Notes under the pieces: model-generated
The model's database searches: none
The model's input: the letters and a program-made list of their open reading frames with translations, nothing else
Told to the model about the DNA's origin: nothing
Assembly (NCBI RefSeq): GCF_025370725.1
Contig: NZ_JAMXEZ010000006.1
Length of the DNA stretch: 64,000 nucleotides
DNA from: Laspinema olomoucense D3c
Lineage (GTDB): Bacteria; Cyanobacteriota; Cyanobacteriia; Cyanobacteriales; Laspinemataceae
Direction: 5' to 3' (one strand)
Translations under genes and position numbers: made by a program
Shown here: positions 28,187 to 31,288 of the stretch, piece by piece
Layout: every line of letters starts with the position of its first letter
Numbering within the stretch: the first letter of the stretch is position 1

Positions 28187-30199
28187 TTAATTCCAGTTCC
28201 CAATTAGAGTAAACGCTGACCAAAAATAAGGGTGAGATAGGTTCGGCGTTTTTTGTTCTACCAATTCCGGTGGGAGGGGGACGGTTTTGCCATTAGAGAG
28301 AACTAACATCCCATTTTCTAGGCGCACCTCTCCCCTTAACAGCGCCAGTTGGGTTTGCCGTAAAGCTTCGGCTTTCAGTGGTTTTTCCCCTAATTGGGAA
28401 TAAAATTCACTCATTAATCCCAGAGTGCCTGCATCGCTAACATACCAGAAACTGGCTAAGGATGCCTTAGCCCCAGAAAGCACCGCTAACCCCGCAAATC
28501 CTAACTCCGCCTCGGTATCTCCTACTGCCGTCCGACAAGCACTTAGGGTTAAGAGTTCAATAGGAGGATTTTGCGAGGTATTCCACCCGAGTTCCGTGGC
28601 TAACTCTCGAATTCGGTTGAGTCCGACTCGGCCATCGTAAAACGTGATATAAGAGTTATCCAAATTTCCCCCTTGAAATTCCGCATGAGTTGCCAAATGG
28701 ATAATTCCAAATTGTTTTTCCTGGTTAATTTGTCGGAAATTAGCAGCAGTGAATTGTTCATTCAAAAAAACAATTCCCTTCCAGGGTTCGCTCACAATAT
28801 TTTGCAACTCACTAGGTACCGCAGGCAGAGGATTGAGGTTTTCAAAAATAGCAGAACCCATCGCTAACACTTCTCGGTTGCGGATATCGGAATAGGTGAC
28901 ATCAGTTAAGCCAAAACTGGGGACTAAAGCAACGGCATATTTTTCTATTAAAAACTGTTCGCCATCATGTAATGCCGCCAGGGGAAGGGTTCTCAACCCA
29001 GAATCCATCGAAAAAACTAAGGTTTCAATCCCATTAGCTTTCAATTGTGCTTCCATTGGAGCAATCAAGGACTGATAGAGTTGTTGGGCGATCGGTAAGT
29101 AACTCCGGCTGTTTATTCTTCTGGGATTAGTCAGTTCTGCTCGCAAGTTTTGCACCTGTGCAATCAGCTCTTCCCGAGAGATATTTGGCACGGTTTGGCG
29201 AACAGCTACCTCACTCGTTCTCTCAATCAGTCCTTGGGCTAAATCCGCCGAAGCCACTAAGTCTAAACTGCCCCCGGCTACTCTAAAATTCTGGGGGAAA
29301 ATCATCACCAGTTCTAATTGCTCTGCTAACGCTGAGACATAAATAAATGCACTCTTATTGTCAGTTTCTTGCCACAAATCATACAATTTTTGGGCAATTT
29401 CATCGGGAGTCGCCGTTTCCCCCAATAACTCCACCGCTAGATAATTGCTAAACTCCATTGCCTGAAATTCTTCCAACATTTGAACCGCCACCCCAACATC
29501 AGCAACGGCTAACTGAGTTTCATAACCCGGGCGATCGATTTCTTGGTCCGATAGGGGAGTCATGGGTTGTGCCTCTTCCGTTGTGCTATCACCCCCTTCG
29601 AGAATCTGACCCTCTATCGGATTGGTACTTTCTGTGGTGGGGTCCGGTTCTGGATTATTCTCACCCACCGTTGGAGGAACTTCCTCCTCACGGGGAACCT
29701 GGGGATTCTCCGGGATGACAACCGGGGCGCTGGGTTCGGGCGCTTGAGTGTTAATTGGTTCAAGGGTTTGAATGGGAATCGGTGCTGGCACTTCCCCTGG
29801 GCTGTTAACAGGGATTACTGGGCTATCCCCAGGAGTTTCGGTGGGAGTTTCTGTAGGAGTTTCGGTGGGAGTTTCTGTAGGAGTTTCTGTGGGAGTTTCT
29901 GTGGGAGTTTCTGTGGGAGTTTCTGTGGGAGTTTCTGTGGGAGTTTCTGTGGGAGTTTCTAAAGGGAGTATATCTCCGCTTGGTATAATTGCAGGAGGCT
30001 CTTCCACTGGCGGTTCTTCCACAGGAGGCTCTTCCACAGAAGGCTCTTCTACAGGGGGTTCTTCTACAGGTAATACCGGCTCTGGAGTTAGGGGTCCTGT
30101 GATATCCGACTGGTTTGTCTGGGTGATGGCAGGATCAGCAGCGATCGCCACCAATGTCATAGCCAAAACTAATTTCATCCATCCCTTAAACAATTTCAT
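28187..30199 (-). CDS. Secreted CHAT-domain (caspase-like) protease with an N-terminal signal peptide and Pro/Glu/Thr-rich repeat linker
   Basis: 670 aa. Signal peptide MKLFKGWMKLVLAMTLVAIAA, then (PVEEP)x5 and (TETP)x11 repeats, a middle domain, and a C-terminal CHAT domain with the catalytic His (GIIHLATHAEF) and Cys (LTLSACRTAVG) dyad. Confidence 0.8.
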   Translation of the reverse strand: MKLFKGWMKLVLAMTLVAIAADPAITQTNQSDITGPLTPEPVLPVEEPPVEEPSVEEPPVEEPPVEEPPAIIPSGDILPLETPTETPTETPTETPTETPTETPTETPTETPTETPTETPTETPGDSPVIPVNSPGEVPAPIPIQTLEPINTQAPEPSAPVVIPENPQVPREEEVPPTVGENNPEPDPTTESTNPIEGQILEGGDSTTEEAQPMTPLSDQEIDRPGYETQLAVADVGVAVQMLEEFQAMEFSNYLAVELLGETATPDEIAQKLYDLWQETDNKSAFIYVSALAEQLELVMIFPQNFRVAGGSLDLVASADLAQGLIERTSEVAVRQTVPNISREELIAQVQNLRAELTNPRRINSRSYLPIAQQLYQSLIAPMEAQLKANGIETLVFSMDSGLRTLPLAALHDGEQFLIEKYAVALVPSFGLTDVTYSDIRNREVLAMGSAIFENLNPLPAVPSELQNIVSEPWKGIVFLNEQFTAANFRQINQEKQFGIIHLATHAEFQGGNLDNSYITFYDGRVGLNRIRELATELGWNTSQNPPIELLTLSACRTAVGDTEAELGFAGLAVLSGAKASLASFWYVSDAGTLGLMSEFYSQLGEKPLKAEALRQTQLALLRGEVRLENGMLVLSNGKTVPLPPELVEQKTPNLSHPYFWSAFTLIGNWN
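29832..29960. repeat. In-frame 12-nt tandem repeat (about 10.7 units, GGAGTTTC[T/G]GTG) encoding the (TETP)n linker of the CHAT protein
   Basis: Directly visible run of near-identical 12-mers at 29832-29960. Confidence 0.9.
29993..30070. repeat. In-frame 15-nt tandem repeat (about 5 units) encoding the (PVEEP)n linker
   Basis: GGAGGCTCTTCCACA-like units repeated with minor variation. Confidence 0.8.
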
Positions 30200-30229
30200 T
30201 GTGAGAATCCTTCTCTAAATAAGCCTGTA

Positions 30230-31288
30230 CTACAACCGATCAAATGTAAACCCATAACCAATCCCCAGAATAAACCGAGTGCCATCTCCAGCACTTCCGG
30301 TGATGTCCGTAATCGCGGGAGAAATCACCAAAGGAATATTCCGAAACGGCACCAGGGAAACCCCCAAAGTGAGGTCCTGACCCGTCCATTCGGCGATCGC
30401 ACTCACGGGAGGAGCAACCCGTACTGCCACTGAGCCAAACAGCCCTACAGTCCCCTCTCCCGCCTGGATATCCGACTCAGAGCGGTATTGTCCACCCCCG
30501 ACCCCCAGGGTCAGATACAATTGGCTCCAAAGGTTCTCGGGGTCATCCAAAACAAACCGTTTCGTCACCACGCCATACCCAGAGGTCCCGCCATCGGTTT
30601 CTCCCCAAGTGAGCGCTCCTTGTACCCCTGCCGCAATGCCAAAATCATTGGGCAATTGTCGGTGCAATTTTAAGCTGACACTGCCATCCTCGAAGGCATC
30701 ACCCCATAAATCCGTTACCGTTATACCAACAGTTAAGCCAATATTTTCCCGAGGATTTCCAAACCCGATGCCGAATCCACCAACCCCATCGCTAGTATCC
30801 GTAAACCGAGTTCGTTCCTGTAAACCTAGTCCAAATCCCGCACTTCCCCAACCCGCACCATAACCGGAGGGAGTCATCACCGTAATCGCCGGAGAAGCCA
30901 AATAGGGTTTGCTTTCAGTGGTAAGATCCATGCGAGGGCGAAACGGGATGCGTTCGGGAATGAAGGGTTGTTCCCCCGGAGTCCCCCGATGTAAGGGAGT
31001 CCCTTGGCGGGGGGTCGTTCCCTCCGGTGTTGTGGAGGGTTCCCCTTGGGCGATCTCACCTTGGGGGTGAACCGTCCCCTCCCCGGCATCCGGTTTAGGA
31101 AAAAGGACCTCAGTGCGATCGCCCGGAAGGGGTTGGAAAAATAAAGGCTCCAGATTAGCAGCATTAGCAGCAAATTCCAGCTTTTCCCCGAACCCTTCTG
31201 CTTGCCAGGGTTCTACCTCGCCCGCTTGGGCGACATCAGGGGGGAATAAAATCCCGAGGAGCAGTAATTCAACGATCATACATTTCAT
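30230..31288 (-). CDS. Secreted Gly-rich hypothetical protein, possibly beta-rich or outer-membrane. First gene of the operon with the CHAT protease (31-nt gap).
   Basis: 352 aa. Signal peptide MKCMIVELLLLGILFPPDVAQA, a Pro/Thr-rich segment, then alternating Gly/aromatic segments (GYGAGWGSAGFGLGL, GIGYGFTF) suggestive of beta-strand architecture. No family recognised. Confidence 0.55.
   Translation of the reverse strand: MKCMIVELLLLGILFPPDVAQAGEVEPWQAEGFGEKLEFAANAANLEPLFFQPLPGDRTEVLFPKPDAGEGTVHPQGEIAQGEPSTTPEGTTPRQGTPLHRGTPGEQPFIPERIPFRPRMDLTTESKPYLASPAITVMTPSGYGAGWGSAGFGLGLQERTRFTDTSDGVGGFGIGFGNPRENIGLTVGITVTDLWGDAFEDGSVSLKLHRQLPNDFGIAAGVQGALTWGETDGGTSGYGVVTKRFVLDDPENLWSQLYLTLGVGGGQYRSESDIQAGEGTVGLFGSVAVRVAPPVSAIAEWTGQDLTLGVSLVPFRNIPLVISPAITDITGSAGDGTRFILGIGYGFTFDRL

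Follow-up and report, generated by a model that had tools for sequence, protein, structure and literature searches.

The 64,000-nt stretch of Laspinema olomoucense D3c analysed here (contig NZ_JAMXEZ010000006.1 of assembly GCF_025370725.1), referred to as the window, carries two adjacent minus-strand genes at 28187-31288. The upstream gene encodes a predicted 12-stranded outer-membrane β-barrel, and the downstream gene encodes a putatively exported CHAT (caspase-like) protease that bears a short conserved peptide, the tag, at its mature N-terminus. The cassette of a barrel gene followed by a gene for a tagged cargo protein is widespread across cyanobacteria, and its sequences indicate that the tag tracks the barrel gene and not the CHAT domain. 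We lean slightly towards a reading in which the barrel serves as cognate receptor for tagged cargo, which it exports or anchors at the outer membrane.

The operon and its two products

Both genes are in the same frame and separated by a spacer with a Shine-Dalgarno-like GAGAAGGA. The first-pass annotation of this stretch had described them as co-oriented and 31 nt apart; the orientation is correct, and the measured gap is 30 nt. In 63 genomes, the spacer between barrel and CHAT genes is typically 9-40 nt. As judged from the sequence, the two genes form one operon in the order 31288-30230, then 30199-28187. Open reading frames (ORFs), Pfam and synteny agree with the earlier proposal of a two-gene operon in which a Gly-rich signal-peptide protein is paired with an exported CHAT protein with an intact catalytic dyad. 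Signal peptides on both proteins are plausible from inspection and from the N-terminal helices in the structure models. The window is nearly identical to Laspinema olomoucense D3b (L001), in which the barrel gene is 100% identical and the neighbouring genes are 96-100% identical. The features of the operon are listed below, with amino acid (aa) ranges referring to the encoded protein, AF2 to AlphaFold2 models, pLDDT to their predicted local distance difference test and TRF to Tandem Repeats Finder.

30230-31288, minus strand: barrel gene, 352 aa (ORF call)
aa 1-22 of the barrel protein: signal peptide (inspection)
aa 23-127 of the barrel protein: disordered, variable, periplasmic N-region
aa 128-352 of the barrel protein: conserved barrel module
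30245-30844, minus strand: predicted 12-stranded β-barrel, aa 149-348 (AF2 model)
30200-30229, minus strand: spacer, 30 nt (sequence)
28187-30199, minus strand: tagged CHAT gene, 670 aa (ORF call, Pfam and orthologues downstream of the barrel gene)
30122-30199, minus strand: signal peptide, aa 1-26, MKLFKGWMKLVLAMTLVAIAADPAIT (read from the sequence; AF2 helix at aa 2-20; putative cleavage site)
30080-30121, minus strand: conserved N-terminal tag, aa 27-40, QTNQSDITGPLTPE (conserved at the mature N-terminus)
29546-30079, minus strand: disordered linker, aa 41-218 (TRF, composition, pLDDT 28-43)
29992-30070, minus strand: PVEEP tandem repeat, 15 bp x5.3 (TRF)
29832-29960, minus strand: TETP tandem repeat, 12 bp x10.8 (TRF)
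29096-29545, minus strand: "mid" domain, helical/beta, aa 219-368 (tblastn conservation in 60 loci; AF2)
28190-29095, minus strand: CHAT caspase-like protease domain, aa 369-670 (Pfam, dyad, Foldseek)
28685-28687 and 28535-28537, minus strand: codons of catalytic His505 and Cys555, respectively (codons verified)

The barrel protein contains 15% Gly overall, and its conserved module (aa 128-352) contains 18% Gly and 10% aromatic residues, which agrees with its earlier description as a Gly/aromatic-rich signal-peptide protein. The guess that 30230..31288 encodes a β-barrel is borne out by the AF2 model, which predicts 12 β-strands over aa 149-348 at pLDDT 75-87 and leaves the N-region disordered. 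We found 997 cyanobacterial homologues, 50-60% identical across the C-terminal ~250 residues. The family alignment has 53 invariant columns and ends in GYGFSF, and an aromatic ending of this type is the usual signature of an outer-membrane barrel. Neither Pfam (30 family members) nor NCBIfam gave a match for the barrel protein, even at E<=1, and sequence searches of the PDB with the barrel profile and with the CHAT protein returned nothing meaningful. A search of 1.8 billion representatives with the barrel profile yielded 1117 clusters, and in all of the best 150 of these the barrel is C-terminal and none is a barrel-cargo fusion.

Longer members of the barrel family often carry S-layer homology (SLH) domains. 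Such domains precede the barrel in seven of the ten long members scanned (SLH-bearing members include P0367, P0387, P0459, P0462, P0469, P0478, P0498, L089 6001-7815 and L102 6539-8548); many family members have two or three, and the longer ones have a coiled-coil-like spacer between the SLH domains and the barrel. These proteins form a class of SLH-anchored 12-stranded outer-membrane proteins that is distinct from the OprB-type SLH porins. Since the SLH domains are N-terminal to the barrel, the N-terminus is periplasmic and the outer-membrane location is confirmed. When conservation is mapped on the model, the barrel is most conserved in two of its predicted external loops, L5 (TGQD) and L6 (DITGSAGDGT), and least conserved in the periplasmic turns, which is the reverse of ordinary porins. 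Between the paralogue classes of the barrel described below, L5 and L6 are 92% and 70% identical, while the periplasmic N-region differs completely.

By profile and by its caspase-like predicted fold, the downstream product is a true CHAT family member. Its match to Pfam CHAT PF12770 covers aa 369-668 (E=9e-64; 216 bits vs a cutoff of 24), and an alignment of 36 sequences shows H501, H505 and C555 to be invariant. The AF2 model of aa 219-670 has pLDDT mostly >90, including the mid domain, where the only low-confidence loop is at aa 307-326. H505 and C555 fall in the C-terminal portions of strands 499-508 and 549-557, respectively. Foldseek matches of the model range from E=8e-14 to 1e-5 and comprise Csx29/TPR-CHAT (E=8e-14), separase, DdvA, SAVED-CHAT and caspase-4. 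The His/Cys dyad reported in the first-pass annotation is intact, and together with the fold it suggests that the domain is catalytically competent.

The linker between the tag and the mid domain consists of 26% Pro, 20% Glu and 17% Thr. The long PVEEP/TETP linkers seen at first reading were found by TRF to be true tandem repeats. These tracts (29832-30070) vary in length among close strains: the protein has 670 aa in the window, against 678 aa in L001 and between 652 and 680 aa in L002-L008. The differences indicate repeat-number polymorphism.

Distribution of the cassette and of the tag

We examined synteny in 80 species-level genome loci of the barrel family with 10-kb flanks. An orthologous CHAT gene is directly downstream of the barrel gene in 63 loci, and one further locus has a frameshifted CHAT copy at this position. 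Another ten end at a contig end, with the start of the downstream gene still visible. In total, 74 of the 77 assessable loci (63 + 1 + 10) have a barrel gene followed by a tagged gene, and the synteny is phylum-wide. A gene for the circadian oscillating protein COP23 (PF14218) is found directly upstream of the barrel gene in 34 loci of Pleurocapsales-type genomes (e.g., L019 2830-3345); the window contains none. Some public metagenome-assembled genomes with these genes are labelled Gracilibacteria, Vampirovibrionales or Actinomycetota (L059, P0126, P0317). The sequences share 75-87% identity with cyanobacterial ones, so these labels probably reflect binning contamination.

All 64 CHAT orthologues share one layout, i.e., signal peptide, tag, disordered acidic Pro/Thr/Glu linker, mid domain and CHAT domain, and N-termini equivalent to the CHAT-protein signal peptide occur in all homologues. 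The tag follows directly after the signal peptide in 64/64, with the consensus Q-[ST]-G-N-[QM]-S-D-[IV]-T-G-P-N-P-x-E (QTNQSDITGPLTPE in the window) and a GTQS[DN] variant in eight. It is present twice in some orthologues. The length of the linker ranges from 23 to 981 aa. In the monomer model, both tag and linker are disordered (pLDDT 28-43), so the tag is predicted to be undocked on the CHAT enzyme and free for a partner.

The tag also occurs on proteins other than CHAT proteases. Two SLH-bearing barrel genes were checked: the one in L089 is followed by a tagged CHAT gene, and the one in L090 by a gene whose 204-aa product is tagged and has no CHAT domain. We also searched with a degenerate DNA pattern encoding GNQSDITGP, which matched 21 metagenome loci. 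Thirteen of these encode a signal peptide, AQ[TN]GNQSDITGP and a further ~165 aa that are not of CHAT type and match no Pfam family, and each of the 13 genes lies ~35 nt downstream of a barrel paralogue that is 47-57% identical. One more match is a truncated CHAT-type gene, and the other seven were rejected as unrelated GNQ[TCR]DITGP strings away from any signal peptide. The resulting family of ~200-aa cargo proteins (L090 4883-5497; L091, L095, L097-L099, L101-L103, L105, L107, L108, L110, L111) is built from a signal peptide, the GNQSDITGP tag, a stretch rich in Thr and Gly and a helical part at the C-terminus, and each member, that of L090 included, is encoded ~35 nt downstream of a barrel paralogue. 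COP23 genes were also seen near paralogous SLH-barrel cassettes (L090 160-1029, L102 9985-10653).

Within 1.3 Mb of loci, the tag is restricted to ORFs located after a barrel gene. It is missing from the CHAT paralogues of L011, L074 and L083, which have no barrel gene next to them. In two of them, L011 (1-3234) and L074 (6404-7804), the catalytic domains are 53-54% identical and the N-termini are different, that of L011 being a long repeat region resembling filamentous-haemagglutinin repeats and that of L074 a plain signal peptide. These patterns suggest that the tag is an interchangeable address label that always stands beside the barrel gene. Since it is common to both barrel classes while their N-region differs, the barrel proper is a more likely place for the tag's binding site than the periplasmic tail. 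Co-variation between tag and barrel was considered as further support and set aside, as the three discriminating columns are probably phylogenetic.

Proposed mechanism and alternative explanations

In the mechanism that we slightly favour, the first product would be exported by the Sec pathway and its C-terminal 225 residues would form a 12-stranded outer-membrane β-barrel. The second product would also be exported by Sec and would then expose its ~14-residue tag, followed by the Pro/Glu/Thr spacer, the mid domain and the CHAT protease. The barrel would act as a dedicated receptor for the tag, with tag and spacer engaging its lumen and its unusually conserved external loops. The cargo might then either cross the outer membrane or be retained there, exposed on a flexible stalk. 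Such a device would resemble an autotransporter split into two genes, or a substrate channel of the FapF/CsgG type with an N-terminal targeting peptide, and the displayed protease could act on envelope or extracellular substrates. We infer the binding between tag and barrel, the direction of transport and the activity of the protease. Export or anchoring is favoured by the type of fold, by linkers that resemble a stalk and by the conservation of the barrel's external face. The linker range of 23-981 aa fits a stalk.

Several points weigh against this mechanism. The contact between tag and barrel is deduced rather than observed, and only three barrel columns distinguish the two tag variants, GNQSD and GTQS[DN], all confounded by phylogeny. 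A 12-stranded pore is too small for a folded 450-aa domain, so export would need an unfolded passenger and some driving force. Additionally, small-solute porins have the same fold, the signal peptide of the barrel protein (MKCMIVELLLLGILFPPDVAQA) is weak in the window, and L037, L041 and L043 have a barrel gene with no tagged gene downstream. No proteomic or genetic data on the pair were found in the searchable literature.

A broader claim, which we make only tentatively, is that cyanobacteria have their own outer-membrane protein-sorting route, in which a 12-stranded barrel, with or without SLH domains, reads QxGNQSDITGPNP and exports or surface-anchors interchangeable cargo. With the same reserve, such a route may be a split, tag-addressed relative of type V secretion whose cargo so far is a CHAT protease or a ~200-aa helical protein. 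How proteins move across the outer membrane of cyanobacteria is, to our knowledge, poorly understood, and we know of no role or export route for the exported CHAT proteases that are abundant in multicellular cyanobacteria. The cassette offers a testable hypothesis, as it is a minimal two-gene system with a 14-residue transferable tag and a defined protease active site. If the hypothesis is true, the cassette would provide a new outer-membrane sorting signal with its machine, and a way to display proteins on cyanobacterial surfaces.

The alternative that survives best, although we consider it rather unlikely, is that nothing is translocated. The barrel would be a solute channel or a tether between outer membrane and peptidoglycan, and the tag would dock the cargo beneath it, which would place the protease for envelope quality control or outer-membrane protein processing. 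This would agree with the KdgM, NanC and COG4313 channels among the top fold matches of the barrel model, and with the periplasmic SLH domains of many family members, which are typical of outer-membrane-to-peptidoglycan tethers. It would also avoid the passage of a folded CHAT domain, which cannot cross a 12-stranded pore. Trypsin_2-TPR proteases of periplasmic type adjoin paralogous cassettes in L090, L102 and L111, where the flanks are long enough to check. However, the parts of the barrel that face the periplasm are not those that are conserved: the N-region is unconserved between the paralogue classes, while the tag and the external loops L5/L6 are conserved. Linkers of up to 981 aa also far exceed what a periplasmic tether needs.

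It is improbable that the tag is instead a processing or modification site, for example for autoproteolysis after the invariant Asp or as part of a propeptide, that is inherited together with the barrel gene by chance. The Ser-Asp pair is indeed invariant within the tag, the cargo of one cassette class is a caspase-like protease, and trypsin-like proteases adjoin the other. But the same tag is found on non-protease cargo and is absent from CHAT paralogues with no barrel, it can be duplicated in tandem, and in the model it stays clear of the CHAT domain. Cleavage at this site would remove only ~6 residues.

The first-pass annotation had suggested that the CHAT operon could belong to a co-regulated accessory module with a vault gene and a VapBC pair. 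These neighbours are present according to Pfam, together with two RNA family matches elsewhere in the window:

31619-34267, plus strand: full-length major vault protein (MVP) homologue, with Pfam Vault repeats and MVP_shoulder; a neighbour outside the cassette
34506-35173, plus strand: VapBC-like pair, in which an 84-aa ORF overlaps a 138-aa PIN toxin by 4 nt
27486-27776, plus strand: 5_ureB_sRNA match in Rfam, 94 bits, on the opposite strand within the gene for the urease alpha-subunit (26194-27927, minus strand)
4624-4708, minus strand: fluoride riboswitch (crcB motif), 52 bits, above the gathering score

Under this reading, the operon would share its regulation with the divergent MVP gene and the VapBC pair through the 330-nt intergenic region (31289-31618) that separates the operon from MVP. 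The divergent arrangement, with its 330-nt shared region, is kept in eight Laspinema/Oscillatoria loci. The intergenic stretch is as first described. A consensus promoter scan, which is uninformative for cyanobacteria, gave no convincing sigma-70 site on the minus strand of this region, and its sole match was a weak plus-strand site at 31611-31638. The first-pass annotation had proposed to judge the module by MVP/CHAT synteny in related cyanobacteria, allowing that adjacency with no synteny in any other genome and no co-expression would be a matter of chance. MVP adjoins the barrel-CHAT pair in 8/80 loci, all from the Laspinema/Oscillatoria acuminata clade (L001-L008). In the next relative (L009, 78% identity), DUF1361 is directly beside the barrel gene with no MVP there, which means that MVP occupies an indel.

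VapC is present in only two of the eight clade loci (L001, L004), so that the VapBC-like pair appears to be a strain-level insertion next to MVP. Its PIN toxin matches Pfam PIN at E=1e-7, and the upstream 84-aa ORF has a weak DUF2281 match. Eight other cyanobacterial MVP loci (Oxynema, Allocoleopsis, Planktothricoides, Aerosakkonema, Nostoc T09, Symploca and two large cyanobacterial contigs) have no barrel/CHAT pair beside the MVP gene, and their neighbours are all different. Within 8 kb of the Planktothricoides MVP gene there are indeed a PIN pair and a gene for a CHAT protein. This neighbourhood was rejected as support, as its CHAT protein is an unrelated cytoplasmic CHAT-TPR paralogue that shows no BLASTP similarity and has no signal peptide, tag or barrel. 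PADLOC gave no defence-system match for any component except a low-complexity artefact on the TETP repeats. A module with vault gene and VapBC is therefore very improbable: both appear to be lineage-specific insertions, the adjacency of MVP a local accident with no functional link, and the conserved functional partner of the CHAT gene would be the barrel gene and not MVP.

Bacterial MVPs in Oscillatoriales have already been described (bioRxiv 10.1101/872010; PMC3762200). We observed that MVP relatives are named "colicin uptake protein" at NCBI and are ~75% identical across many filamentous cyanobacteria. Their neighbourhoods are variable and often include genes of toxin-antitoxin or defence type (PIN, HepT/MNT, Uma2, DUF433, NACHT). 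The 5_ureB_sRNA match is most likely due to the conserved urease coding sequence and not to a genuine small RNA.

Comparison with known systems

No description of the barrel-CHAT pair was found in the literature searched, and the cassette would represent an undescribed, barrel-dependent form of outer-membrane protein handling. Its closest parallels differ in how cargo and barrel are joined. The type V autotransporters, both classical and inverse (NalP, Hbp, BrkA, AIDA-I, intimin), share a 12-stranded outer-membrane barrel with the window protein, but have passenger and barrel in one polypeptide, while here two ORFs are split by stop codons and each has its own signal peptide. Instead of a covalent linker, recognition would use a free N-terminal peptide of ~14 aa. 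None of the 30 barrel-family members searched has a Pfam match to Autotransporter or related families at E<=1.

Two-partner secretion (TpsB/TpsA, FhaC/FHA) likewise uses adjacent genes for an outer-membrane barrel and an exported cargo with an N-terminal recognition element. TpsB is a 16-stranded Omp85 barrel with two POTRA domains, whereas the protein here has 12 predicted strands and a disordered N-region. TpsA is recognised by a folded TPS domain of ~250 aa, whereas the signal here would be a short disordered peptide of ~14 aa. The barrel protein matched no POTRA or ShlB profile, and the CHAT protein did not match the TPS domain (PF05860).

FapF, the functional-amyloid exporter of Pseudomonas, is similar to the barrel in fold only, with no sequence similarity. 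The window protein shows no clear counterpart of its plug helix and coiled coil, the model leaving the N-region disordered, and the FapF operon carries the amyloid subunit genes fapB/C in place of a CHAT protease or ~200-aa helical protein. The curli system, with CsgG and the N22 signal of CsgA, also lacks sequence similarity, and the cargo here is a large folded enzyme and not an amyloid-type substrate. Among the porins, KdgM and NanC (oligosaccharide porins) show fold similarity only, and the window barrel falls outside the KdgM family profile. OprB-type porins have no sequence relation to the barrel family (no Pfam match). The cyanobacterial SLH-porins resemble the longer family members in bearing SLH domains, which the window protein does not have.

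A different topology is offered by RcsF-OmpA/C/F, in which a disordered N-terminal linker threads the barrel lumen, with the N-terminus outside and the folded domain periplasmic. By analogy, this arrangement might fit the conserved external loops and the minimum linker of 23 aa seen here. RcsF is a lipoprotein that the β-barrel assembly machinery (BAM) assembles into general porins, whereas the CHAT protein has no lipobox and its barrel is dedicated and co-encoded.

On the cargo side, Csx29/TPR-CHAT (Craspase), separase, SAVED-CHAT and DdvA have the caspase-like fold with a His/Cys dyad in common with the window CHAT protein. All of these are regulated by CRISPR, nucleotide or securin-type partners, and all but the membrane-anchored anti-sigma factor DdvA are cytoplasmic. 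The window CHAT protein, in contrast, is predicted to be exported by Sec, lacks any TPR or SAVED sensor and is paired with an outer-membrane barrel.

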